From Candidatus Doudnabacteria bacterium (lineage in GTDB: Bacteria; Patescibacteriota; Doudnabacteria; UBA920; O2-02-FULL-48-8), in assembly GCA_016186915.1 (NCBI GenBank), contig JACPKU010000007.1, positions 1-45,788 of the forward strand: 45,788 nt of DNA, written 5' to 3'. This document shows, piece after piece, positions 1,407 to 24,404 of the stretch (the stretch's first letter is position 1; the number at the start of each line of letters is the position of its first letter). A model generated the notes under the pieces. The model was not told the DNA's origin, searched no databases, and saw only the letters and a program-made list of their open reading frames with translations. The translations under genes were made by a program, and so were the position numbers.

Positions 1407-1833
1407 AGTTCTAAGTTAATAGTTCTTAGTTCGTAAAGTACTAAGTTATAAAGTCTTAATCAGCCCCGAGATCAATTTTGAGATTTCTACTGTTGCTCTG
1501 TAAATATGCTCGAATTGATCCTTTGTTATATAGCCTAATTCCAAAGCAATATAAGCCATAGATCTGACTTCTGCACAAGAACCCTTGGCTATATACAGAA
1601 ACTTTCTGAATTCTTTATTGCCTTTTCTTTCGAATCCTTCGGCAATATTATTTGACATGCTGACCACGGCACTCCTGATTTGATCGCGGAAACTGAAGTC
1701 GCGATTATCTTTAAAAACTTGGTAAACATAAATCGCCAAGTCCCTAGACTTCTGCCACGAGATTATATCTTCAAATTTTTCTATCACCATATAACTTTAT
1801 GAACTTAGAACTTAGAACTTAGAACTCAGAACT
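1407..1833. repeat. 7-mer (GAACTTA) tandem repeats in inverted orientation on both sides of the four-helix gene; a further patch near 3104-3138
   Basis: gaactta-gaactta-gaactta-gaactca-gaact at 1801-1833; degenerate reverse-complement units at about 1407-1448. Confidence 0.75.
1446..1790 (-). CDS. Four-helix bundle protein (23S rRNA intervening-sequence protein family)
   Basis: FEDIISWQKS, DQIRSAVVSMSNNIAEGFER and FLYIAKGSCAEV motifs. Confidence 0.9.
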   Translation of the reverse strand: MVIEKFEDIISWQKSRDLAIYVYQVFKDNRDFSFRDQIRSAVVSMSNNIAEGFERKGNKEFRKFLYIAKGSCAEVRSMAYIALELGYITKDQFEHIYRATVEISKLISGLIKTL

Positions 1834-1835
1834 TT

Positions 1836-2582
1836 CTATTTGATAACATCCTCTAATAACTTCACGCCCTCTTCGTAAGATAAGCCGTGAGTTCTAAAAA
1901 CCAACGCCCCAATACCCGGGTTAGGGGTGCTTAAGATAGCCGCCGGCCTGCCCGCCGAAGCTTCAGCGAAGGCGGGATCTCCATTCCCGTCTGCTTCCAC
2001 GGTATTTTTAATGATGTAGGCGGTATAAGGCACGAAACTGCCGCTGGGAATAGTGATGGTTTGCTCGACCGTGATCTCTACGACCGGGTCTTGATCAGTC
2101 AGGTGCAGCTTCAATTTATTCCCGACATTTTCAAACCAAGCAGTCTTAAACAAGACAAGACCTAAGTCTGGGCAGTTTTTATACCCCGTGGTGGCATAGC
2201 CAAAATCGAGATTGGAACTGTTCTGAAACGTGCCCACCGCCAAGAAGCCTTCGGAACATTCATATGTTTCTACCCTGACCTCACCGAAACTCGCCGGATA
2301 GGTAAACTCAAATTCGTATTCGGGATTTCTGTAGATTTTCTTGTCCGCCGACTCACTTAAGACAGGGGGCGCCTGAATGTCGCCAACAGTTGCGGGCTCA
2401 CCTTCCTGCGGCACTGAATTTTGATCAGAAGGCTGGGACCCGATCTCGTAAGTTTTTTGCTCGCCCAAAATATCTTGGTTGGGATTCCCAGCTTGGTTAT
2501 TTTTATAAAAATTTAAACCCGCGGCAATCGCGATAACTGCCAGAACCCCTAACCACATTATAATTTTATTTTTGGGAGTCAT
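1836..2582 (-). CDS. Membrane-anchored hypothetical protein
   Basis: N-terminal TM helix, YRNPEYEFEFTYP (PsbP-like CPR motif); an in-frame palindromic repeat encodes PAFAEASAGRP. Confidence 0.7.
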   Translation of the reverse strand: MTPKNKIIMWLGVLAVIAIAAGLNFYKNNQAGNPNQDILGEQKTYEIGSQPSDQNSVPQEGEPATVGDIQAPPVLSESADKKIYRNPEYEFEFTYPASFGEVRVETYECSEGFLAVGTFQNSSNLDFGYATTGYKNCPDLGLVLFKTAWFENVGNKLKLHLTDQDPVVEITVEQTITIPSGSFVPYTAYIIKNTVEADGNGDPAFAEASAGRPAAILSTPNPGIGALVFRTHGLSYEEGVKLLEDVIK

Positions 2583-2609
2583 GTTAAGTAATAAGAATTG
2601 TTAGTTGCT

Positions 2610-3077
2610 TCGCAATCCTGATGACAATCAGGATCTCTTTACAAACTCTTCGTATAAGTCTTTCCATTCTGGGTTATACTTTTCGATTAGCTCTATTTTC
2701 CATTGTCTGTGCCAATTTTTAATTTGTCTTTCCCGTTCTAACGCCTGTTCTACCGTCTCACACGGTTCAAAGTATACAAGCTTCGTCAAATTGTATTTCT
2801 TGGTAAAGCCTTCTACTAACTTCCGTTTATGTTGATCAATTCTTTCCAGACCATAACCTGAACTGCCTGTATATAACACGGTATTCGTCTTATTCGTCAT
2901 TATATAGATCGCGGGTTCTCGGTCGTCCATAATTTTTTGAGATGCTGAATTAAATTCAGCATTACGTGAGAGAGTCAGGGTTCGTCCCTCCTCCCGCAAT
3001 CCTGATGTCATTCAGGATCTCTTTCTTTGAGACCCTGAATCAAGTTCAGGGTTGCGTAAGAGTGTTCAGGATTGCGA
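2610..3077. repeat. Paired REP-like palindromes flanking the GIY-YIG gene
   Basis: CGCAATCCTGATG-CA-TCAGGATCTCTTT at about 2611 and 2995; GAGA--CTGAAT-AA-TTCAG at about 2939 and 3029. Confidence 0.8.
2628..2930 (-). CDS. GIY-YIG nuclease (short UPF0213-like)
   Basis: AIYIMTN...LYTG..ERIDQH...GFTKKY..KLVYFE...ALERERQIKNW..NPEWKDL; start reassigned to the ATG at 2930 because upstream codons are repeat DNA. Confidence 0.9.
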   Translation of the reverse strand: MDDREPAIYIMTNKTNTVLYTGSSGYGLERIDQHKRKLVEGFTKKYNLTKLVYFEPCETVEQALERERQIKNWHRQWKIELIEKYNPEWKDLYEEFVKRS

Positions 3078-9074: not shown

Positions 9075-9974
9075 TCACCTAAATGATCTATAAAATTTCC
9101 AAAGATATCTTAACAACAAAATAATCACAATTAGCAAAAGCCATTGCCTATTCAATATAAATACCAACCCTGACAGCAACCCTTTGTATATCTTTTTCCC
9201 AGTAACGCTATTGTCCTTCTCTTCTCGCACCCCAGCCAATCCCTCCTCTCTGGCTTCCTGTTGTTTGATTTCATGGTCCAAATCTTCAATTTTCTTCTCC
9301 AATTTCTCAGTAACCTGCTCGAGCGCACCACTAGTTTTTTCGCCAAGATTATCTGCTACTTTCTGAACCACTGATCCCGCTCCACTCGTGGGATTGGAAT
9401 TTTGTTTTACTTCTTCACCATCATTTACTCCATCATTGTCAGTGTCAGGATTAAGCGGATCAGTGCCAAGTTTCTCTTCTTGTTCATCGTCCAAACCATC
9501 ATTGTCATCATCAGGGTCTTCCTTGTCTCCAACCTCATCATTGTCTGTGTCAATGTCAACAAATCTTTTATCCACGCTCGAAATGCTAAAGCCCAAATCA
9601 ATTGGTTCAGGATCATTTCCTGCGATGGTTTTGTAAGTGTCTATTAACTTAACATAAATTTCATGTTCGCCTGCGGTTGCCGCCCAATCTGTCCATTTCT
9701 CGATGAGTCTGCCGTCAATTACTTCGAACTCATTCTCACCCAAAACCTGATCCTTATCGAAAAACTGAATCTTGCCTGTGATATCAAATCCAGACTGGTT
9801 TTGGAGCGCAGTGTAAATCCGGACGTCATCCCCGGCAAAAAACGGATACTCTGAATACCAAATCCCACTCACAAACCCCGCATTCACCCCTGGCTCCTGA
9901 GCCGTCACCAAACAAAAAGGCAGAGTCAAGCCTAATAATATTGCAAGGCTATTTTTTAATCTGTTTAATTTCAT
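9075..9974 (-). CDS. Secreted, C-terminally anchored protein with Ca-binding DxDxDG (TSP3-like) repeats
   Basis: Signal peptide, Ig/CARDB-like N-domain, DTDNDEVGD..DPDDDNDGLDD..GTDPLNPDTDNDG, C-terminal TM. Confidence 0.8.
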   Translation of the reverse strand: MKLNRLKNSLAILLGLTLPFCLVTAQEPGVNAGFVSGIWYSEYPFFAGDDVRIYTALQNQSGFDITGKIQFFDKDQVLGENEFEVIDGRLIEKWTDWAATAGEHEIYVKLIDTYKTIAGNDPEPIDLGFSISSVDKRFVDIDTDNDEVGDKEDPDDDNDGLDDEQEEKLGTDPLNPDTDNDGVNDGEEVKQNSNPTSGAGSVVQKVADNLGEKTSGALEQVTEKLEKKIEDLDHEIKQQEAREEGLAGVREEKDNSVTGKKIYKGLLSGLVFILNRQWLLLIVIILLLRYLWKFYRSFR

Positions 9975-10537: not shown

Positions 10538-10614
10538 CGGGGACTGGCTCAATTGGCTAGAGCGCTCGCTTTGGGAGCGAGAGGTTCCGGGTTCAAGTCC
10601 CGGGTCCCCGACCA
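10538..10614 (+). tRNA. tRNA-Pro(TGG)
   Basis: CGGGGAC acceptor, CTCGC-TTTGGGA-GCGAG anticodon arm, GGTTCAAGTCC, CCA end; hairpin plus T-run terminator follows. Confidence 0.95.
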
Positions 10615-10646
10615 ACATTACCCGCTATGCGGGTTTTTATTTTACT

Positions 10647-10677
10647 TGTAAGATTGTTATGATTATCACGTCATATA
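10647..10677 (+). promoter_or_regulatory. Putative autoregulatory ECF-sigma promoter (second copy at 11272-11302)
   Basis: TGTAAGATT-11 nt-CACGTCATATA occurs twice with identical spacing; CGTC is a typical ECF -10 core. Confidence 0.7.
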
Positions 10678-10683
10678 CAATGT

Positions 10684-11181
10684 ATGTTTAAATCCCAAGA
10701 ACGGCAATTCCTTAAGGCATATGATGAATATGCTGACAGTATATACCGGCACTGCTACTTCCGGGTTTTTCAGAAAGAACAAGCGCAGGACCTAGTGCAG
10801 GACACGTTCACCAAAACATGGGAGTACCTCTCCAAAGGCAACACAATCGAAAACATCAGAGCCTTTCTCTACCGGACTGCCACCAATTTAATAGTCGACC
10901 AATCACGAAAACCTTCCGAGCTGTCGTTGGAAAGCGCGATGGAAGAAGGGTTTGAGCCGCAGGCCGTGGAAAATATTGAAGTAAACGTTGATACAGAAAT
11001 TTTGGTAAATCGGTTGAAAGATTTGGAGGAACCCTACCGCGAGGTTATTATTCTAAAATACATTGAAGGATTTAAGATCAAAGAAATAGCTGAAATCTTG
11101 GATAAATCTGAAAATATAATTTCTGTAAGGCTCCATAGAGGGGCAAAAAAACTTAAGGAAATACTTAAAGAATATGAGTAA
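10684..11181 (+). CDS. ECF RNA polymerase sigma factor
   Basis: AQDLVQDTFTKTW (region 2), FLYRTATNLIVD, region 4 EIAEIL..SEN.ISVRLHRG. Confidence 0.93.
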   Translation: MFKSQERQFLKAYDEYADSIYRHCYFRVFQKEQAQDLVQDTFTKTWEYLSKGNTIENIRAFLYRTATNLIVDQSRKPSELSLESAMEEGFEPQAVENIEVNVDTEILVNRLKDLEEPYREVIILKYIEGFKIKEIAEILDKSENIISVRLHRGAKKLKEILKEYE

Positions 11182-12289
11182 TATTTTTGACCAATTAAAA
11201 ACTGTAAAACTCGACAAATCGGATAGAAAAAGGATCCGTTCAGATTTAAAATTGTTTGTTAAGCAAAATCCTGTAAGATTTTCAGAAGATCCACGTCATA
11301 TATGGCATAGGTCGTTAATATCATTAAAAGAAAGGAAATTTTCTATGCCAGCAGTATTTTTAGCTCTTGTGCTTGCTTTGAGTGGAGGAACAGCCGCCGC
11401 AGCAAGCGACACTTTGCCGGGCGACTTCCTCTACCCTTACAAACTTCATGTCAATGAGAACGTCCGCTCCTTCTTCGCACTCTCAGAAGAGGCCAGAGCG
11501 GATCTGGCAGTAGATCTCGCAAGTCGCAGGCTTAACGAAGCCGAACGGTTGGCTCTCAGACAAGAATTAAGTGCCGAACATCACGCCATGTTGGAAGCGC
11601 GTTTCCAAGATCGAATTGAGCACATGCAAGCAATCATTACTGATCTGGAAGCAGAAGGTAAAACTGAAGCAGCCGCGGAACTTTCTGCCAAACTGGAAGC
11701 AATGCTGAAAGCTCACGAAGAAATCTTAAGCAAACTCGAGGCCAAGGCACAGGCCGAAGGTGAAGTAAATGCCGAAGCAAAAATCAATTCAGGTCTTGGC
11801 CCCTTACTGAAAAACATTAGAATGCGTCATGGAGCAGCCATGGAGCAACGCGCCGAATTAGAGGCTAAGTTGGAAGGCTCGGATGCCGATGACCGAGCCG
11901 AAGTGATGAGTGAAATTCATATCCGGCAAGCGGAACAAAAGCTCAATCTCGCCCAAAATACACTCGTAAGAGCAGAAGGAAAAATTTCAGCCGATTCCAA
12001 AGCCCGAGCCGAAGGTTACATCAATACTGCTAACGAGCTGTTGGTTCAAGCCAAAACCAAATCCGAAGCCCAAGAATTCAGCGAAGCCATACGCTTAGCG
12101 TTAGAAGCCCAGGCGCAAGCCTTAAATGCAGAATTACTGCTCAAAGCCTACTTACGCTTAGACGCCAACCTCAAAACCGAGCTAGAGGTAGAAAGTGAAA
12201 CCGAAACTGATACTGAGGATTCCAATGTCGAGATTGAATCAGGTCTCCATCTGGAGACCGACGCCGATTTCGAACTTCGCCTCCAATAA
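11174..12289 (+). CDS. Anti-sigma-like membrane protein with DUF5667-type domain
   Basis: Overlaps the sigma stop; TM then LPGDFLYPYK..NE motif and a long helical domain; alternative start at 11345 has an SD. Confidence 0.75.
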   Translation: MSNIFDQLKTVKLDKSDRKRIRSDLKLFVKQNPVRFSEDPRHIWHRSLISLKERKFSMPAVFLALVLALSGGTAAAASDTLPGDFLYPYKLHVNENVRSFFALSEEARADLAVDLASRRLNEAERLALRQELSAEHHAMLEARFQDRIEHMQAIITDLEAEGKTEAAAELSAKLEAMLKAHEEILSKLEAKAQAEGEVNAEAKINSGLGPLLKNIRMRHGAAMEQRAELEAKLEGSDADDRAEVMSEIHIRQAEQKLNLAQNTLVRAEGKISADSKARAEGYINTANELLVQAKTKSEAQEFSEAIRLALEAQAQALNAELLLKAYLRLDANLKTELEVESETETDTEDSNVEIESGLHLETDADFELRLQ

Positions 12290-15429: not shown

Positions 15430-15894
15430 CTATTTTCCTTTTTCTTTTTTCTTTTCCATTGCTTCGCCTTTTTTCTTTTCTTCTTCTGGCAGGTCCTTAT
15501 ACAAAGTGCCCAAAACACCGTTTATAAACTTCCCACTGCTTTCTCCTCCAAATGTCTTGCCCAACTCCACTGCTTCGTTGATTACCACTTTGGGCGGCAC
15601 TGATTTGGCAAACATTAACTCATAAATGCCAAGCCGTAGGATGTTGCGATCCACCACTGTGATCTGATCCAGTGGCCATTCCGGCGCTGTTTTTACTATT
15701 ATTTCATCAATTTTGGGCAAATTATCTTCGACACCTTTAAGCAAATCAAAAATAAAAACAGGATCTTCTAATCCCGGGCCAAACTGCTTAATGTTGTATT
15801 CTGCAATTTCTGCAAGCGGTTTGACTCGGTCGTTGAAGTCCCATTCGTAAAGACTTTGCATCGCAATTGTTCTGGAGAGATGTCTGTTGGCCAT
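15430..15894 (-). CDS. nusB: Transcription antitermination factor NusB
   Basis: [53 protein letters not shown]. Confidence 0.96.
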
Positions 15895-15896
15895 AC

Positions 15897-16097
15897 CTAA
15901 CTTTTGACTTTTGACTTTTGACTTTTGAGTTTCAATACTTGCTTGCCTTTGTAGTAGCCGCAGTTGGTGCAGGCCTGATGAGGCATCGCTGGGTATTTAC
16001 AATTCTGACAAATGCTGAGATTGATCTTGCTTAGAGCGTCGTGCGATCGTCTTTGGTTGCGCGAGGATCTGGTTTGTCGTTTTTTAGGTACTGGCAT
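15897..16097 (-). CDS. rpmF: 50S ribosomal protein L32
   Basis: [19 protein letters not shown]...PH.AC..CGYY; C-terminal tail encoded by a (TCAAAAG)n repeat. Confidence 0.95.
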
Positions 16098-16202
16098 AAG
16101 GTTAGAATATAGAATGTTGAATGTAGAATATGGACTGTTAATTTATAGCATAAAAAGTTGTGCGAGTCAAAAAAATTACCCTTATATCTCTTTTCTTAGC
16201 GA

Positions 16203-16458
16203 GGAATTCCTGCGAAATTAGCCTTCGGAACCCTGCCCGCGGCAGGGTGAGAACGCAGGGAACGTCTGACGTTCCAGGCTGCGTTTCGTAGCAACGAAAC
16301 GACAGCCGTTAATTTCGCAGGAATTCCGAGCGCTCCCAGGCAGCTGCCGACGAACAGGAGACCAGCGCTAGTTTTGCAAATAGTACTGGATTCGTCGACA
16401 GGTGTCTGAAAACGGGATGGAGAGAGCGCAAGTGCGGTTAAGCTACCGCGCTCTCTCC
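16203..16458. ncRNA. Putative structured RNA/ssDNA domain at the end of cassette 1
   Basis: Perfect 18-bp stem GGAATTCCTGCGAAATTA/TAATTTCGCAGGAATTCC (16203-16220/16310-16327) enclosing three hairpins; GGAGAGAGCGC/GCGCTCTCTCC stem at 16409-16458. Confidence 0.6.
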
Positions 16459-16469
16459 TTGAACGCACC

Positions 16470-16733
16470 TCACGGATCTGGTTCGTCAGCCAGGCCGAAA
16501 GGGACGTTATTGCAGTCCGGGTCTTGCTCGCACTCGGCCAGCGCTTTCTCCATCTTGCGCTGGAAGCGCTGGTCAGGCGTGCGGACTGCTTCGAGCTCCT
16601 GACGCACCTCCTCGCTGGGATTAGGCGCGAGCAGTACAAGCAACGCCCCTATCACCAGCAACGAGACGACCGCCGCAATCACCCACGCGAGCACGCTATT
16701 GCCTTGGGGCGATCCAACGATTTCGCCTCGCAT
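16470..16733 (-). CDS. Orphan single-TM protein (87 aa), cassette 1
   Basis: Start reassigned to the ATG at 16733 behind AAGGGGG; TM helix then charged helix and CxxxxxC. Confidence 0.65.
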   Translation of the reverse strand: MRGEIVGSPQGNSVLAWVIAAVVSLLVIGALLVLLAPNPSEEVRQELEAVRTPDQRFQRKMEKALAECEQDPDCNNVPFGLADEPDP

Positions 16734-16746
16734 AGTTTGTCCCCCT

Positions 16747-16860
16747 TTAGAGCAAGGCCGCCGCGACCACAATGATTGCGATCACGACGATGGCGCCAAC
16801 TACGTACTTGGCCCGCCCTGACTGCTTGGGCGGTTCCGGGTTCAGTAGGATCGACGGCAT
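16747..16860 (-). CDS. Orphan 37-aa membrane peptide, cassette 1 (not in ORF track)
   Basis: GGGAGG-aaaca-ATG; MPSILLNPEPPKQSGRAKYVVGAIVVIAIIVVAAALL. Confidence 0.6.
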   Translation of the reverse strand: MPSILLNPEPPKQSGRAKYVVGAIVVIAIIVVAAALL

Positions 16861-16871
16861 TGTTTCCTCCC

Positions 16872-17036
16872 TCAGTGTACCGTTGGCCGACCCAACGGAT
16901 GAAAACAAACGCGAATGACCACGTCCTCGAGTTCTTGACGCTCAAGCGCGATCTCGTCGCGACTCAAACGCTTGGGACCAGTAGGACCATATCCGAACCT
17001 CGCGAACTTGTTTGGGACGTCAGGACCCTTTTGCAT
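16872..17036 (-). CDS. Orphan 54-aa protein, cassette 1 (not in ORF track)
   Basis: AGGAGG SD; MQKGPDVPNKFARFGYGPTGPKRLSRDEIALERQELEDVVIRVCFHPLGRPTVH; tiles head-to-tail with the next two ORFs. Confidence 0.6.
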   Translation of the reverse strand: MQKGPDVPNKFARFGYGPTGPKRLSRDEIALERQELEDVVIRVCFHPLGRPTVH

Positions 17037-17106
17037 ATAATGGTCCTCCTACACCTCCACAATATAAGATACTTTGAGAATTCATACAAGCATCCTAAAT
17101 TCCAAA

Positions 17107-17395
17107 GGCTTCTCCCGCCGCTAAGCTTGAAGCTCAAGCTCACTGGCGGGAGAAGATCTGAAGTCTTGGGGGACTATCAGATCTCCGTGAAGTTTCCTGG
17201 CGGGGGCCAGTGTAAGCTGGCAGCCTGCGTTTGAAACGCAGTTAGGAAACCTCGGTTTGCCGGTGGATTTTGTGGGTCCCCTATCACCGGCAGGTGGGCG
17301 AACTCCGACGGACCGAGCAGCCGGCCTTGGCGTCAAGTCGAATGACCCGAAGGCCAAGCGCCAAAAGCGCTGCGACAGCGAGAAAGGTGCATAGC
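17107..17395 (+). ncRNA. Putative structured RNA/ssDNA domain at the end of cassette 2
   Basis: Consecutive stems CTTCTCCCGCC/GGCGGGAGAAG, AGATCTGA/TCAGATCT, GTTTCCT/AGGAAAC, CTCGGTTT/GGACCGAG (G-U on +), TGCCGGTG/CACCGGCA, GGCCTT/AAGGCC. Confidence 0.6.
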
Positions 17396-17420
17396 TCAGC
17401 CATCGGACTCCTCCTTCGCC

Positions 17421-17636
17421 TCATCCGAGCCTTCTTTTCCAAACCAACCAAGCGCCGACAACGCCTGGCAAGTATACGATGGCAGCCTCGACAAAGACTG
17501 CCGTGACACCCCAGCCGAGCCCCAACTTAGGCTCCAGCCAGAGCCACAGCGGGTCGTGAACATCGCCGATGGGTCCGCCCTGAAAGGCGAATAGAAAGCC
17601 GGATAGTGCGAGCAAAAACACACCCAGAATTTGCAT
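17421..17636 (-). CDS. Orphan 71-aa two-TM membrane protein, cassette 2
   Basis: AAAAGGAGGA-cttg-ATG at 17636; hydrophobic with a basic WKRR C-terminus. Confidence 0.7.
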   Translation of the reverse strand: MQILGVFLLALSGFLFAFQGGPIGDVHDPLWLWLEPKLGLGWGVTAVFVEAAIVYLPGVVGAWLVWKRRLG

Positions 17637-17854
17637 CAAGTCCTCCTTTTGCGTCCACAATTCAGGATATTTATTCTAAGAAGTTCTGTGAGACTAAAAT
17701 TACTTGATTCTCTCTTAACTTAAATAAATATCCTACTTTTGCGGAAACAAACTAGTTTGCAAGAAGTTTAATCTTTCAACTAACAACTGTCAACTGTCAT
17801 TTCCGATCCTCTGACCTCCACTTCAATACGTTAAAGTATTAAAGTGAAGCCCAA

Positions 17855-17986
17855 GGGAAGGGAGGCTGGACGAAACGCAGTGAAGCGAATCGACCAGCCA
17901 TACTAAGAGGGATCTGTGCGCGGATATGGAATCCGCACAGCGCGGTCACCTTCTTCACGATGTCCACCGGGCGGTGGATCAAGCCG
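17855..17986 (+). ncRNA. Conserved structured element, copy 1 (homologous to 19022-19165)
   Basis: Three-hairpin fold with compensatory changes relative to copy 2. Confidence 0.7.
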
Positions 17987-18239
17987 TCGGGTGGTAAATG
18001 AACCCGCCCAGGTTGTCGGGACTGCACGAGCCGTCGCATACCCCCTTTGGCTCGAACGAGATGTCCTCTGCGTAGCTCACGTTACCGTCCTGGTCGAACC
18101 AGACATGGATCAACCAATCAACGTGAGAGTGGCCGTCGCAACCGTAATTCCTCTGGACTTCCACCTTGCCGAGGCCACCGCGGACATCAGCAGGCTCCTT
18201 GCTCTCCACCTCAACTCCGTAAATTCGGTAACCGTTCAT
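17979..18239 (-). CDS. Orphan 86-aa Cys/His-containing protein, cassette 3
   Basis: AAAAAGGAGGA-cagc-ATG at 18239; CDGHSH...CDGSC possible metal site; a 26-codon uORF (18236-18316) overlaps its start as ATGA. Confidence 0.7.
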   Translation of the reverse strand: MNGYRIYGVEVESKEPADVRGGLGKVEVQRNYGCDGHSHVDWLIHVWFDQDGNVSYAEDISFEPKGVCDGSCSPDNLGGFIYHPTA

Positions 18240-18334
18240 GCTGTCCTCCTTTTTTGCTCGGGTTTGCTCGGGCGAGCGATATTTCGGGCACACTGGTCGC
18301 ACACCTTGTCCTCCATAACTTCTCTGGAACCATT

Positions 18335-18379
18335 CCCTCCCAGAAAATTCCAATTGCTTGAAATGCTCTGGGAGAGAAA
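18335..18379. repeat. 45-bp imperfect palindrome at a cassette boundary; second copy at 20732-20776
   Basis: CCCTCCCAGAAAATTCCAATTGCTTGAAATG(C/T)TCTGGGAGAGAAA, 44/45 identical. Confidence 0.9.
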
Positions 18380-18432
18380 AAGAATTGATTTGATTTTTAA
18401 ATAACAATAAATTATACTAAGATTACTAACTT

Positions 18433-18690
18433 ATGAAAAGACCGAAGATTGCTCTGAGCCACCACGCACATTATCAGATCAAGGAACGGAAACTGTCAAT
18501 TCAGAAAGTCAAAGCAGTCGTTCTTAGTCCAGACAAAGTCACAAAGCAACCTGACAACCGCTTCTTGGCTTACAAACTAGTTAAACGCTCTGATAAAGAT
18601 TATCTGTTAATCGTGATTTATGAACAAACCAACTCAAGGCTTAAAATCGTGACCACATTCTTAACCTCTAAACTTCGTAAATATTTATGA
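18433..18690 (+). CDS. DUF4258-like (RelE-fold) putative toxin
   Basis: LSHHA..QIKERKLS...V..V..SPD...LLIVIYE....KIVTTF. Confidence 0.75.
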   Translation: MKRPKIALSHHAHYQIKERKLSIQKVKAVVLSPDKVTKQPDNRFLAYKLVKRSDKDYLLIVIYEQTNSRLKIVTTFLTSKLRKYL

Positions 18691-18902
18691 AATTCCATTA
18701 CGATAAAAAAATTGACGCTCTCTCTATCCGTTTCAATGACAAACGGTATGTTGAGTCTGACCAGGTTTCGGATGACATCATCTTTGATTATGACAAGCAA
18801 GGACATATCATCGGGATAGAAGTGCTTAATGCTTCCAAACGCTTCCCCAAAGAATTTCACAAACAACTTCATAATAAGCTAATTCCAGTCCAAACCGTCT
18901 AA
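18687..18902 (+). CDS. DUF2283-family protein (putative antitoxin)
   Basis: MKFHYDKKIDALSIRF...DDIIFDYDKQGHIIGIEVLNASK; ATGA overlap with the upstream gene. Confidence 0.85.
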   Translation: MKFHYDKKIDALSIRFNDKRYVESDQVSDDIIFDYDKQGHIIGIEVLNASKRFPKEFHKQLHNKLIPVQTV

Positions 18903-18982
18903 GCAAGGCGCCTGCCCGCCAAAGCTCGAAGAGCAAAGGCGGGGTTTTAATTTATCAAAGAACTTTCCCTTCCTCTACGCTC

Positions 18983-19012
18983 CACTTATAATACGTTAAC
19001 GTATTATAAGTG
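18983..19012. repeat. Perfect 30-bp palindrome; degenerate copy at 17819-17846
   Basis: CACTTATAATACGTTAACGTATTATAAGTG vs CACTTCAATACGTTAAAGTATTAAAGTG. Confidence 0.85.
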
Positions 19013-19021
19013 TAGAACAAA

Positions 19022-19165
19022 GGAAGGGGCTGGACGAACGAATTGCTTGCTGTCCAGCTGCGTTGGTAGGGACTTGTGCGCGAGCAGGATGCTCGCACAG
19101 CGAGGTCACCTTTCACGATGCTTGCCGAGCGGCAGACATCGGCTGGTTTTCTGGTCCAGCAACCA
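19022..19165 (+). ncRNA. Conserved structured element, copy 2
   Basis: GCTGGAC/GTCCAGC; GACTT..CGAGC-AGGAT-GCTCG..AGGTC; CGATG-TGCC-GAGC-GGCA-CATCG. Confidence 0.7.
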
Positions 19166-19167
19166 CT

Positions 19168-19794
19168 TTAGTGCCTCCTGCTAACCACGTAGTTCACTCG
19201 CACTTGGGAACCGGCCGGCAACTTCTGGAACCACAGTTCCACACTGCCGGCCTGGTTGAACTTCACCGTTCCCGTGACGAACGGCTTATGCTCCCAAGCC
19301 TGATCCCCGAACTTGTAGGCGGCGTAGCCCGCACCCGCCTTGAACCGGCCAAAGTCGTACTCGAGCTTCGCCCGGTCGAGAACGTGCTGGATACGTGCAA
19401 TTTTGTTGATCGGCACGTACAGCAGATAGTTGGCCTGCGCGCTCACCCGCTCGGTCAGTTGGAACAGTCCGAGCACGAACGGTTGGACGTATCGCTCGGA
19501 TGTTCCCGGACTGATGGCCTGAACAAAGTAGGTCTCGGCCACCAACGCCATCCGCTTGGCAGGCGTGAGCACTCGGCCGGCACCGACATACAGCTCACGA
19601 TAAACGTCAGAGCCGAAGTCAATGTAGCCAAGATCCCAGGCCACCGTATTGCCTCGAGTCTGATAGACCTCAAGCAACCGATATGTATGGCCGTCGGAGT
19701 TGCCAGCGATGCGGAACTCCGCACTGGTTTCGGTCTGCGCGAAAAGCTGCACAGGCAGGCTGATTACAAACAGAACAACAAGGATTCTGGTCAT
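19168..19794 (-). CDS. Secreted protein resembling an outer-membrane beta-barrel, cassette 4
   Basis: GGAGG-caagc-ATG at 19794; signal peptide (..QLFA|Q); alternating hydrophobic beta-strands rich in Tyr/Gly. Confidence 0.65.
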   Translation of the reverse strand: MTRILVVLFVISLPVQLFAQTETSAEFRIAGNSDGHTYRLLEVYQTRGNTVAWDLGYIDFGSDVYRELYVGAGRVLTPAKRMALVAETYFVQAISPGTSERYVQPFVLGLFQLTERVSAQANYLLYVPINKIARIQHVLDRAKLEYDFGRFKAGAGYAAYKFGDQAWEHKPFVTGTVKFNQAGSVELWFQKLPAGSQVRVNYVVSRRH

Positions 19795-20299
19795 GCTTGC
19801 CTCCATGCGCTTTCGCGCCAAAAAAGAACGATCTAGTTGCTTCCACAATCTTGAACACTTTATTTAAGCATCAAAAATTCTGGAAACAATATTCTCCCTC
19901 ACCCCCGTCCCCTCTCCCCTGAGGGGAGAGGGGAGTTCTAATTTGTAAAAATCATTTGCACAACTCTGGGTGCTAAGAAACTTCTTGGAACTATGGTACT
20001 GAATAATTTTCCTGTTTAACTGCTAACGCCCAGAATGGTGGAAACCAGCCTTCTCCCGGACTTGATCCGGGGTTGGACTGATAAGTAAAATGTATATACA
20101 AAAGTATATACACAGATATAACTTTTTTAATGTTCGATCATATAATATTGTATTATACTTAAATACTGTAAAGTATTTAAGTTTTTCCGATCCTCTGCCC
20201 CGAACCAAATGGTTCTGGGGCAAGGGAAGGGAGAGAGACGGGATTTACTCAATCAAGAGTGTCAACCATCTCTCTTCTTCACACACAAACTTCCTCCAA

Positions 20300-20662
20300 T
20301 CATTTCTGTGATCGGCCCGCTGCTCTCGTCCTGAAGTACTGGACGAGCATGGGCAGAACAATGAGTAGTCCCAACATCCTCATCGCATTGCCGATCAAAT
20401 CGTACTCCGGCCAGAATGAGATGGTCGAACCGACAACCATCCCGACCGCGCCAGTCCAGAAAACCAGACAGGAGAACATGATCTCCGGGACTGTCGCCAG
20501 AGCGCCGCCATACCCGAGAATCGGGAGGCCGTTACTCAAAAGCTCTCCCGACCAGCCCGCAAGAAACGGGAAGTCTTGGATCACCCGTGGGTGACCCACG
20601 AAGAACCCGATGAAGACCAGCACAACGCCGAACTTCAACAAAGCCTTAGCACAGCGGTCCAT
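20300..20662 (-). CDS. Orphan multi-TM membrane protein (120 aa), cassette 5
   Basis: GAGGTG SD; three to four hydrophobic segments, basic C-terminus. Confidence 0.7.
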   Translation of the reverse strand: MDRCAKALLKFGVVLVFIGFFVGHPRVIQDFPFLAGWSGELLSNGLPILGYGGALATVPEIMFSCLVFWTGAVGMVVGSTISFWPEYDLIGNAMRMLGLLIVLPMLVQYFRTRAAGRSQK

Positions 20663-21302
20663 ACTCTATCACCTCGCGCATTATTCCCACGCCTTTGGCG
20701 GGGTCAGCGCAAAAAAGAACGATCTATTCCTCCCTCCCAGAAAATTCCAATTGCTTGAAATGTTCTGGGAGAGAAATACCTATAAATTTTTGAGCGAGGG
20801 TTGTCTGCGAAAAAAGAATCTCGGAGCTGAAACCGCTTAGTTCCTGCGGTTACAGGGAGAGCTTAGCGGCAAATTTTGCGTCCAGTAAAATTTGACCTCG
20901 TCTTTTTTCACAGACACCCGAGCGTTATTTCCACAATTCTGGGCACTGCTGTATGCAAGTGTACGGGCATAAAAAATATGGTTATCCCTCTTAAGCATAA
21001 GTTGAATGCCCAGAACAGTGGAAACAATAACGCGGGATGGCGGGCAGGTTAAACCTCACTTGTCCGCCGAAGTCCCGCAAAGCGGGACGTAGGCGGATAG
21101 AGTGCCCAACATCCGAGAAGCAAAAAATCCCTTGTTCAGGGACTATTCTAGCTCTGCTATAAGCTATCAGCTAAAAGCTATAAGCTTACGGCTTCCGTCT
21201 CCTGAACGGAAAATTATATATAGTAACCCTTCGATTTCGCTTCGCTCCGCTCAGGGATCAAATGTTGCCTGAGCTTGTCGAAGGCGATCATGTAAGGGTC
21301 TA

Positions 21303-21348
21303 TTTTCAAAGAACAGGCAAGTATATACCAAAATCGCAATCTTGTCAA
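21303..21348 (-). promoter_or_regulatory. sigma70 promoter followed by a boxA-like antiterminator, pointing into the cassette array
   Basis: On the - strand: TTGACA-17-TATACT-tgcct-GTTCTTTGAAAA. Confidence 0.75.
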
Positions 21349-21435
21349 CCCCTTTAGAGTAAATATTGGCTAATATAAGCCAATATTTATCTTTTTGATA
21401 TAATAAACCCAAGACCCCAAAGGAGGATATTCGCG

Positions 21436-22239
21436 ATGAAAAGACTGTTGCTTGTGCTGGCACTGACAGTTGGTGCCATGCAGGCACCAGTTGGACAGGA
21501 ACAAACGCCTGAACCGAACCGCATCAAGCGGGTGCCAGAAGACACGCGAGACTGGGTGAATGCCTACTTCCCGCCCGAAGTCATGGAAGTGCTTTGGCTT
21601 ACTGACTACGCTGCCTTAGACCAAGCCTATGAGAACGGCTGGCTGGTTGATATCCCGCAAAACAGCGACCCCTTGGCAGAAGCTCTGGGGATTCGATTGC
21701 AGACAGAAGGCGACTTCCCCATTGCCGAAGCAGAACCCGATCCCAAGCTTAAGGTCAAGCTCTTCCGCCTGGCCAAGCCTGGGGCAGGCTTGCTCTACTC
21801 GATCGCTGATCATGTGCGAGAGGAAGAGAGAAAAGAACGAGAAAGAAGAAAGCTCCAACCAAGGCCGTTCTTGCCCATCGGCGTTACAAGCCTGGTCAGA
21901 ACGGCAGAATACCAAGCCCGCCTGATTCCTCTCAACGCTAACGCAGATACAGAGAGTCAGGGCGTACCAGCGACCCACATAACTGGATTGGTGACTGACA
22001 TCACGCGCGCGAACATGACTACAGCGCGTGATAGAATCGTCTCTAACTATCTGATCGAGCTTAGAGACGCTGATAAGATCCTTTACTTCCGTGAAGGGGC
22101 CAAACAGGCCACCTACCACGTGATCGCACTCCTGCAAACCCGCGAATTCTTCGAGGCCGAGTATGACCGACTGCTCCTTAAGGCCCGGGAACGAATGGCC
22201 GCCGAGGCACAAGGAACAATCGAAAAGCCGAACGACTGA
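21436..22239 (+). CDS. Secreted DUF5715-like / peptidase M15 (LAS)-type Zn protein
   Basis: AAGGAGG SD, signal peptide, VTSLVRT.EYQ..L...N.NA....PATHITG...DI (H-x6-D) and TYHV; hairpin plus T-run terminator at about 22224-22260. Confidence 0.7.
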   Translation: MKRLLLVLALTVGAMQAPVGQEQTPEPNRIKRVPEDTRDWVNAYFPPEVMEVLWLTDYAALDQAYENGWLVDIPQNSDPLAEALGIRLQTEGDFPIAEAEPDPKLKVKLFRLAKPGAGLLYSIADHVREEERKERERRKLQPRPFLPIGVTSLVRTAEYQARLIPLNANADTESQGVPATHITGLVTDITRANMTTARDRIVSNYLIELRDADKILYFREGAKQATYHVIALLQTREFFEAEYDRLLLKARERMAAEAQGTIEKPND

Positions 22240-22336
22240 CTCGCTCGGCTTCTTTTTTTTACAGATTATTGAAACGAGGAATAGTTGCAAAATTAGCCTG
22301 CGCAGGACAACGGTGATTATGCAACCTATTCCTAAG

Positions 22337-24022
<1,686 letters not shown>

Positions 24023-24110
24023 CTACCTGCCTACCGGCAGGCAGGCGAATAACATCCGAATGCCACGAATGGCCTGACCCTCAAGATTCGGATCATTCGG
24101 ATCGCATATA

Positions 24111-24404
24111 TTACTGAACTATCCCGAGGATGTCCTCGTCTTTTAGAAATTTGTATTCGACCTTGCCTTTGCCATCTGGTGATTCCATTTCGACTTCGTC
24201 CCCGGCGTATTTGCCGAACAGCACTTTATCGCCAATCTGCAAATTCAACTTTTTTATTTTCTCGCCGTCGCCGATTGCCACTACTTCGCCCTGCTCTTTC
24301 TTTTCTTTTTCCGCCGTATCCGGCAGCACAATGCCCGACTTGGTCACTTCTTCCTGGGTTAAGGGCTTGACCAATACCCGGTTTCCCAATGGTTTAATAT
24401 TCAT
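24111..24404 (-). CDS. groS: Co-chaperonin GroES
   Basis: IKPLGNRVLV...TKSGIVLPDTA..GDKVLFGKYAG. Confidence 0.98.
   Translation of the reverse strand: MNIKPLGNRVLVKPLTQEEVTKSGIVLPDTAEKEKKEQGEVVAIGDGEKIKKLNLQIGDKVLFGKYAGDEVEMESPDGKGKVEYKFLKDEDILGIVQ

Follow-up and report, generated by a model that had tools for sequence, protein, structure and literature searches.

A conserved coding-strand stem-loop family in a variable gene array between groEL and rpmF of Candidatus Doudnabacteria

What are the related inverted repeats that stand among small genes in the groEL-rpmF interval of a Candidatus Doudnabacteria genome, and do they act as DNA or as RNA? The stretch analyzed here (the window) is the complete 45.8-kb contig JACPKU010000007.1 (45,788 nucleotides, nt), one of the 7 contigs of a 728-kb genome that is 97% complete. 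An original prediction, made from the letters alone, had described five such repeats as boundary hairpins of a row of cassettes, structure-specific sites that share a conserved base and whose inner stems vary yet stay paired, and had proposed that they are either attC-like recombination hairpins or RNase III-type processing stems. Our analysis upholds the description: the repeats belong to a stem-loop family found at one chromosomal locus and on one strand, in most copies just upstream of a gene start. We interpret the element as a transcribed stem-loop heading cassette units, and we put at roughly 0.4 to 0.45 the probability that its specific role is that of a processing or stability signal of the RNase III type, as judged from sequence.

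The array reads from groEL to rpmF on the minus strand, which also carries all four genes of its flanks, rpmF-nusB (15430-16097) and groEL-groES (22337-24404). It holds small open reading frames (ORFs) on the minus strand with a GC content of 0.55-0.63 and a GC content at third codon positions (GC3) of 0.55-0.79, compared to 0.41-0.59 for GC3 in the core genes of the window. The spacers between them are AT-rich and full of hairpins. A covariance model (R1), trained on the window's five copies and 13 more from a DNA search of relatives (18 in total), placed all five predicted repeats on the minus strand; a second model with four helices (R2) was trained on 47 copies. The array and its hairpins are as follows, with RNA fold energies in kcal/mol.

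16098-22336, minus strand: variable array bounded by rpmF (15897-16097) and groEL (22337-23992), based on synteny in relatives and on ORF versus hairpin GC
20924-21028, minus strand: hairpin copy 5, long form (R1 79.2 bits, R2 67.7 bits; fold -41.3 on the minus versus -34.4 on the plus strand)
19951-20048, minus strand: hairpin copy 4, without an ORF of its own, in tandem with copy 3 (R1 66.2 bits)
19836-19890, minus strand: hairpin copy 3, short form without helices P3 and P4 (R1 45.1 bits; fold -21.2 minus versus -8.8 plus)
17648-17751, minus strand: hairpin copy 2 (R1 65.7 bits; fold -31.4 minus versus -24.3 plus)
17050-17111, minus strand: hairpin copy 1, the most divergent (R1 33.0 bits, E-value 1.2e-4; fold -19.8 minus versus -5.7 plus)

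Four of the five hairpins are clear members of one family, and the divergent copy at 17050-17111 was not listed by the stricter R2. Folded as minus-strand RNA, copies 1 to 5 reach -19.8, -31.4, -21.2, -23.6 and -41.3 kcal/mol, with z-scores of -3.9, -5.4, -7.1, -1.7 and -6.2, respectively. The fold of copy 4 (19950-20050) taken alone is not significant (z of -1.66; 11 of 200 shuffles equal it); the copy shares 77% identity with G012:C6:22518-22621. The outer TCCACAA motif had been described as common to all five; it is kept in four, and the copy at 19956 has TGCACAA instead. The GGAAAC end is present in four copies, as had been noted, and absent at 17103-17108, and the inner stems AGGATATTTATT/AATAAATATCCT and TTCTGGGCA/TGCCCAGAA pair as proposed. 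Copy 1 lies 13 nt before the ATG of ORF 16872-17036, the 3′ end of copy 2 is ~11 nt from the ATG of ORF 17421-17636 with GGAGGA directly after the stem, and copy 3 ends 41 nt before the ATG of ORF 19168-19794. A promoter-like TTGACA-17-TAAACT (10/12 in a promoter scan) is located near copy 2, at 17793-17765. Copies 4 and 5 (19951 and 20924), which had been suggested as possible empty sites and rightly described as having no ORF directly behind them, both stand in tandem with further hairpins upstream of the next ORF; downstream of copy 5, another long hairpin is followed by a 46-nt repeat.

How far does the family extend? It is not scattered over its own genome: R2 found the array and a single weak match elsewhere in the 728 kb (E-value 0.019), and the plain pattern TCC[AG]CAA..GGAAAC has 7 matches in the genome, 3 of them inside the array. 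A DNA search of 60 relatives revealed counterparts in other genera for several spacer elements of the array, including two of the five hairpins. R1 matches 23 of 61 genomes when the window's own is counted; with that genome excluded, matches occur in 19 of 24 members of the window's family, in 3 of 9 members of a second family (weak matches only) and in 0 of 27 members of the other four. Over 146 genomes of the class, at an E-value of at most 1e-4, R1 detects the element in 18/24 genomes of the window's family, 1/95 of a second group and none of the rest. All matches are located between groEL and rpmF-nusB, on the strand of these genes, wherever the surroundings were examined, namely in G001, G003, G006, G007, G008, G009, G012, G013, G014, G021 and G022; in G002, G005, G010 and G015, the contigs show at least groEL beside the matches. 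The groEL-to-rpmF interval measures 3.4 to ~9.8 kb, with 1 to 7 copies inside. Elsewhere in the class, the groEL-to-nusB interval of other families is 1.1-4.5 kb long, and the single weak matches of G116 and G027 fall within it. The first copy begins no more than ~440 nt from groEL in six of nine mapped arrays, and several first copies, judged by eye, come directly after a terminator-like stem and U-run behind groEL. The last copy is found at 0.32-0.84 of the array length in nine arrays, so that ORFs on the rpmF side lack an R1 hairpin. The relatives in the window's family are titled Candidatus Doudnabacteria, two of them being metagenome-assembled genomes (MAGs) of that name, and the hairpin family belongs to one group of ultra-small groundwater bacteria.

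The element matches no Rfam family. Rfam 15 returned two tRNAs only from the window at gathering thresholds, and in the array, at E-values up to 5, weak chance matches of microRNA or small nucleolar RNA type, none of them on the five hairpins. The paired pattern has no match in viral contigs. In genome contigs, the exact pattern occurs at three loci, two of which are in Doudnabacteria MAGs; the third, from a MAG titled Synechocystis sp. (one contig), has neither the 5′ UUUCCAC arm nor any stem-loop context and was taken as a chance match. The portions available to us of the literature on Doudnabacteria, on integrons of the Candidate Phyla Radiation, on Patescibacteria cassettes and on intercistronic RNase III sites contain no description of such an element or locus.

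The element is 45-157 nt long and consists of four helices. Its lower stem, made of helices P1 and P2 separated by a 1x1 mismatch, has ~22 stacked pairs, UUUGUUUCCAC-N-UUCUGGG.. facing ..CCCAGAAUUGUGGAAGYAAC, and the element ends are UUUGUUUCC.../...GGAAGYAAC. The upper part holds P3, P4 and an A/U-rich loop; it is missing from short forms, and some copies have an extra GC hairpin inserted there. We aligned 47 long copies from 19 genomes using MAFFT, leaving out five short forms (window 19836 and 17050, L018:3717, L052:9235 and L057:8191). Over 33 pairs in the four helices, 85.8% of cells are paired, compared to 76.5% in shuffles (0/500 reach the observed value) and 36.7-51.2% when the partners are slid. 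Changes on both sides were observed in 27 of the 33 pairs, for a total of 165 such cells where 58.6 are expected. Paired cells amount to 91.0%, 85.8%, 73.4% and 81.4% in helices 1 to 4, respectively; P3 and P4 were drawn by hand from the alignment, and their counts lean somewhat to that reading. RNAalifold, unaided, recovers only the lower stem, with 12 of its 15 pairs compensatory. In P1, UUUCCAC/GUGGAAG alternates with UUUCUAG/CUGGAAG; in P2, UUCUGGG/CCCAGAA with AUGUUGGG/CCCAGCAU or UUCUGAAUA/UAUUCAGAG; and in P4, AGGG/CCCU with AGAG/CUCU, ACGG/CCGU or GGCG/CGCC. Double changes affect all 7 P3 pairs and all 4 P4 pairs. The interior, described originally as variable, does vary in its inner stems, but P3 and P4 are kept and covary across genera. 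That the structure is real and under selection is, in our view, practically certain.

The pairs also tell the strands apart. G-U cells (162 of 1489) outnumber A-C cells (56), which assigns the fold to the coding strand, and sense matches score about twice as high as their antisense twins (for example 90.5 versus 47.3 bits). Copy 4 is the exception to the minus-strand preference (-23.6 versus -25.3 kcal/mol on the plus strand). As single-stranded DNA (ssDNA), the minus strands of copies 1 to 5 fold at -5.0, -17.1, -8.5, -6.8 and -19.7 kcal/mol, two of the five no better than shuffles. In each genome, all copies are on the strand of groEL and of the ORFs, and the other hairpin types of the array share the minus-strand folding bias. 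Because the fold is coding-strand specific, dependent on G-U pairs and much stronger as RNA than as DNA, the element probably acts as RNA.

The copies are positioned with respect to genes. In 34 of 52, a Shine-Dalgarno (SD) sequence, a start codon and an ORF of at least 30 aa are found within 52 nt downstream, a situation met by 17.7% of random sense positions and 7.1% of antisense positions in nine arrays. The distance from hairpin to start ranges from 1 to 52 nt among these close copies. Median values for the 34 headed ORFs are 75.5 aa in length and 0.55 in GC content, and 17 contain a hydrophobic segment. The units headed by the copies comprise one to three ORFs each. Across 12 genomes, only 12 of 130 candidate array ORFs, a few of which are probably not genes, have a homologue in the array of another genome (BLASTP E-value up to 1e-4). 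The link between the motif and GC-rich orphan ORFs that had been proposed is borne out by position and composition. G006 and G001 have in common a short hairpin, the linker behind it and a homologous 127-aa ORF, conserved as a block in which DNA similarity starts in the 3′ arm of the hairpin; the sequence upstream differs. Comparisons within genera are uninformative on breakpoints: G013, G022 and G024 share isolated segments, G019 and G003 share nothing, and G010 and G021 share groEL and the adjoining stretch.

What could such an RNA element do? We propose that mostly long transcripts would be made from the array on the strand of groEL, and that the stem-loops would be recognized as double-stranded RNA (dsRNA), most simply by RNase III, or else would serve as protective 5′ or 3′ stem-loops; each unit would in this way become a defined, stable message with a free SD sequence just downstream. 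Transcription, cleavage and an effect on stability or translation are what we infer here. This processing or stabilizing role is suggested by the location of the element just 5′ of ribosome-binding sites, by the 22 pairs of its lower stem, which provide the ~20 bp of near-continuous dsRNA expected of an RNase III substrate, and by the presence in the genome of an RNase III gene (C6:31615-32007, PF14622 at 142.6 bits, open frame of 228 aa). Two related arrays also hint that transcripts may be cut between units. Candidate type III hammerheads are found in sense orientation between cassettes at L018:4313-4368 (G006 array) and L052 ~9845-9899 (G001 array), as a 55-nt segment with 93% identity between the two genera that includes the core CUGAUGAG, stem II and CGAAA. 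The candidates come just after the homologous 127-aa cassette ORFs and 70-75 nt upstream of the next R1 hairpin.

Several observations weigh against a processing signal of this kind. Of the 7 sequencing runs listed as containing the stretch, none is recorded as RNA. The hammerhead candidate scores 38.0 bits with RF00008, below the gathering score of 48.5 (E-value 4.8e-7 in a 251-nt search), and its pattern has 0 matches in the window's own genome. Of the 52 copies, 7 are separated from their qualifying ORF by 88-156 nt, and for another 11 no such ORF occurs within 250 nt. R1 hairpins are also lacking at many array ORFs, as in G013, with only 3 copies in a 9.8-kb array. An ORF shared by G013 and G024 (71% identity, with DNA similarity from the SD to just past the stop only) has an R1 hairpin leader in G024 and a different palindromic hairpin in G013. 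A general processing signal would also be expected at other operons, yet the element is confined to one locus. Finally, the upper helices and loop are conserved although a simple RNase III site does not need them, and a specific protein partner may therefore act instead.

That last point is the basis of the alternative that survives best, which we nevertheless consider unlikely: a regulatory 5′ leader to which a specific protein or factor would bind and which would co-regulate all units through translation or decay, no general dsRNA nuclease being involved. Conservation of P3, P4 and the A/U-rich loop across genera, with every P3 and P4 pair doubly changed, fits a bound leader well, as do G-U wobbles at fixed positions (U-G in 31 of 47 copies at columns 5/193), the proximity to SD and start codon, and the single locus that a dedicated regulon would occupy. 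The 52-62 nt short forms without P3 and P4 still head ORFs, however, the distance to the start codon is not constant, SD sequences are not consistently sequestered (at least 3 SD bases are paired in only 14 of 32 folds), and no candidate binding protein was identified.

Two other signals were considered and rejected. For an SD-sequestering switch, a GCUUCC downstream of the stem complements the 3′ arm and the SD, but the SD is paired in no more than the 14 of 32 minimum-energy folds just cited. For boxA/NusB antitermination, a recurrent GUUCUUUUUG follows the hairpins; in the comparison with the genome's own ribosomal RNA leader, that leader proved to carry GCCUUUGAACAA-type sequences instead, and GTTCTTTT followed by G occurs 27 times genome-wide. 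An individual sigma-70 promoter before each hairpin was also discarded, only 9 of 52 copies reaching 8/12 consensus matches.

The other branch of the original prediction, attC-like sites, ranks next and appears decidedly unlikely. The hairpins would be folded as ssDNA and used by a recombinase encoded elsewhere, for instance the Xer-like tyrosine recombinase of the genome, so that cassettes would be inserted, excised or shuffled at a fixed chromosomal platform, as in an integron without an adjacent integrase. The idea keeps some weight because of the foreign composition of the array ORFs, their mostly orphan status, a toxin-antitoxin-like pair on the opposite strand within the array, and the extreme variability of content that the homologue search disclosed. 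Same-facing hairpins between such small ORFs, two conserved ~7-bp boxes with a small mismatch between them and an upper part of varying length, one hairpin subtype before unrelated ORFs in different genera (by eye), and the clustering of copies toward the groEL end of the arrays are all reminiscent of attC sites.

Yet every testable defining feature of attC sites proved absent or gave no clear outcome. Complementary RYYYAAC..GTTRRRY pairs spaced 45-140 nt apart number 0 on both strands of 16100-22300, where shuffles give a mean of 0.26. No recombinase domain was found in the 25 window ORFs scanned, array flanks included. The genome encodes one full tyrosine recombinase, which is Xer-like (XerD/XerC/XerA at 240-265 bits) and scores 144 bits on the integron-integrase model TIGR02249 against a cut-off of 265, plus one fragment; no Y1/HUH transposase or serine recombinase was found in it. 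Strand and position also disagree with attC sites, since the favoured strand is the coding strand, with reliance on G-U pairs, and the G006/G001 hairpin is kept with the downstream rather than the upstream ORF. As ssDNA the hairpins fold weakly, two of the five without reaching significance. There is no visible conserved extrahelical base, and the terminal part consists of two covarying helices with a conserved loop, unlike the free variable terminal structure of attC. Lastly, contigs from a second, independent study (X1 and X2 versus X5 and X6) contain an identical array over the segments compared, with no supported indel or joint; the five joints that the strain comparison returned have sides of 23-27 letters lying between repeats and are unreliable.

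Could the hairpins be repeats at the DNA level without any RNA function, either relics of palindromic mobile elements or anchors for cassette swaps by homologous recombination after uptake? Inverted-repeat ends, multiple copies and nested GC-hairpin insertions in some copies would suit such repeats, and so would duplicates within arrays (two G012 copies with identical arms; the window's 46-nt repeat, 98% identical) and the presence of the array's other hairpin families elsewhere in the genome and in relatives. Dispersal in both orientations, as in MITE, REP or ERIC-like palindromes, is not observed for R1 and R2 matches, which occupy one locus per genome and always the same strand. Strong strand-specific G-U covariation is unexpected for a double-stranded DNA repeat, and the persistence of the element in 19 of 24 family genomes while the cassette ORFs diverged beyond recognition argues for purifying selection on the fold. 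We therefore regard DNA-level repeats as quite improbable. The chances are as slim for a composite scheme that would make the groEL-rpmF array a platform for gene capture without an integrase, an integron analogue built of different parts, whose hairpin adapter would be a recombination boundary as ssDNA and a processing or expression signal as RNA; foreign ORFs would be installed behind the hairpin in an ultra-small, probably symbiotic host, with a housekeeping recombinase or DNA uptake as the driving process. The hairpins are highly improbable as a new class of self-cleaving ribozyme, an idea prompted only by the hammerhead candidates that precede R1 copies of G006 and G001 by 70-75 nt (known ribozyme classes are often found close together): the alignment shows no stretch of highly conserved unpaired nucleotides, (near-)invariant columns being mostly in stems, half the structure is missing from short forms, and no Rfam ribozyme family matches the window copies at E-values up to 5.

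The remaining features of the array, which include the ORFs of the cassette units, are listed from rpmF to groEL (fold energies in kcal/mol).

16470-17036, minus strand: three tight small ORFs behind hairpin 1, without Pfam family, GC 0.55-0.62
16470-16733, minus strand: ORF of 87 aa with one hydrophobic stretch, unit of hairpin 1
16747-16860, minus strand: hydrophobic ORF of 37 aa, unit of hairpin 1
16872-17036, minus strand: ORF of 54 aa, unit of hairpin 1
17284-17636, minus strand: two small membrane-type ORFs behind hairpin 2, 17421-17636 (71 aa) and 17284-17403 (39 aa)
17796-17872, minus strand: palindromic hairpin module ending GAGGAUCGGAAA, between ORF 17979-18239 and hairpin 2 (fold -31.4 versus -25.4)
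17979-18239, minus strand: ORF of 86 aa behind the 46-nt repeat, 36% identity by tblastn to the G009 array locus (L016)
18334-18379, minus strand: 46-nt repeat copy 1, a second leader type, 94 nt upstream of ORF 17979-18239 (fold -27.0 minus versus -17.9 plus)
18433-18902, plus strand: overlapping genes for DUF4258 (RelE/barnase-like nuclease) and DUF2283 proteins, a toxin-antitoxin-like pair with native low GC (0.38)
19168-19794, minus strand: ORF of 208 aa behind hairpins 4 and 3, secreted (signal peptide), GC3 0.72
20300-20662, minus strand: membrane ORF of 120 aa behind the 46-nt repeat
20731-20776, minus strand: 46-nt repeat copy 2, 68 nt upstream of ORF 20300-20662, 98% identical to copy 1
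21436-22239, plus strand: secreted DUF5715 protein of 267 aa at the groEL end of the array, found by tblastn at the same place in five relatives (six loci)

The 46-nt repeat had been recognized as a second repeat type heading cassettes, and its two copies indeed precede ORFs. The palindromic module, which has further window copies at 18960-19034 and ~20142-20207 (repeat families D3 and D5), is a near-perfect, AT-rich palindrome with ends CCCUUCC.../...GAGGAUCGGAAA, accompanied by a conserved GC stem GUGCGC..GCGCAC. Three cassette ORFs have this module on their 3′ side, its 3′ end comes 0-60 nt before several R1 hairpins, and it shares 91% identity with a copy in the G006 array; it is also found in the G007, G012 and G013 arrays. 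The hairpin CCCCUCUCCCCUGAGGGGAGAGGGG at 19893-19936, also flagged as a terminator-like feature of the plus strand, is one copy of a repeat that is abundant in many family genomes (dozens of matches) and that, unlike R1, is not confined to arrays. The 121-nt hairpin at 20799-20919, between hairpin 5 and the 46-nt repeat, folds about equally on both strands (-46.7 and -50.1) and has relatives at C7:612-729 in the same genome (75% identity) and in G012, G014 and G024. An element of ~75 nt near the array head (21212-21289) has three further copies in the window's genome, all on contig C2 (85-87% identity), and occurs in G002, G032, G041 and G046.

Among the cassette products, the 208-aa protein looks like a small outer-membrane beta-barrel of KdgM/porin type, to judge from its predicted fold, which adjoins small porin-like beta-barrel clusters in the Atlas (TM 0.66-0.82, a lead only). 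Such a protein is odd for a lineage thought to have no outer membrane. The sources name its relatives as Doudnabacteria, Parcubacteria, Nomurabacteria and a Patescibacteria group bacterium. In metagenomes, a single-protein scan found no relative and a profile scan found 36 loci, none with an R1 match at E-values up to 0.1. The GC content outside the gene is 0.50-0.65 in 16 of the 17 loci measured, and the 15 neighbour ORFs scanned at five loci (L067, L079, L082, L089 and L095) encode, among others, a TonB C-terminal domain, RibBA and a large beta-barrel of the outer membrane. Together these findings suggest that the cassette may belong to a family common to GC-rich, double-membraned bacteria. 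The only cassette family seen in five arrays is one of 88-98 aa proteins (G007_618, G012_633, G008_552, G022_2303 and G003_1641, the last genome having a 52-aa member), which has no counterpart in the window. The DUF2283 gene of the window shares 73% DNA identity with G058.

At the rpmF end (15744-15987), each of the four DNA runs shows an abrupt 10- to 50-fold rise in summed contig depth, and many loose ends cluster at 15898-15933, the rpmF/nusB junction; a short stretch there is evidently common to contigs of many other organisms. Elsewhere in the window, a tRNA-Pro followed by genes for an extracytoplasmic function (ECF)-type sigma factor and a DUF5667 protein (10538-12289), and genes for a 23S-rRNA-intervening-sequence protein and a GIY-YIG nuclease (1446-3011), have no connection to the hairpin array.

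Characterization of this family gives the Candidate Phyla Radiation, a lineage with almost unexplored non-coding RNA, a well-supported structured element, and draws attention to a hypervariable locus at a fixed chromosomal address with a fast turnover of small proteins, secreted or in membranes, that could plausibly serve in cell-cell interaction. Should the stems be processing signals, they would show how a tiny genome expresses genes of foreign appearance from a single common transcript; as recombination sites, they would amount to an integron-like system without integrase.

Which known systems does the array resemble? The attC sites of integrons are imperfect hairpins whose recombinogenic fold forms on the bottom strand (the template for the cassette ORF) and which lie 3′ of their own ORF; attC clusters without integrase are known as CALIN. 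As in these clusters, same-facing imperfect hairpins with two conserved boxes at the base and an upper part of variable length bound small, variable, mostly orphan ORFs of foreign composition at one platform, and a toxin-antitoxin-like pair lies inside the array. The Doudnabacteria hairpins differ by having neither RYYYAAC/GTTRRRY cores nor an IntI, by a coding-strand fold that relies on G-U pairs and is weak as ssDNA, by conserved upper helices, and by a position 5′ of the ORF, with which the hairpin can be conserved, while some cassettes have none. The pdif modules of Acinetobacter plasmids and the attP site of CTX phage are cassette-like units or folded ssDNA handled by housekeeping Xer recombinases with no dedicated integrase nearby, and the window's genome has exactly one Xer-like enzyme; the lower-stem boxes of the array hairpins, by contrast, are not inverted copies of each other, and no dif-like 28-nt site was seen, none having been sought. 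ERIC/IRU elements of enterobacteria and Correia elements of Neisseria, the latter processed by RNase III, are likewise imperfect palindromes of ~50-150 nt with compensatory changes in transcribed intergenic regions, but they are dispersed in tens to hundreds of copies, whereas the present family keeps to one locus and one orientation. The RNase III stems of phage T7 offer the parallel for a processing signal: related stem-loops between the cistrons of long early and late transcripts, such as we propose for the array, with about two helical turns of dsRNA and small internal loops just before the ribosome-binding site of the next gene. In Doudnabacteria, this arrangement would be found in a chromosomal array of a cellular organism, with much longer elements, conserved upper helices and putative cleavage.

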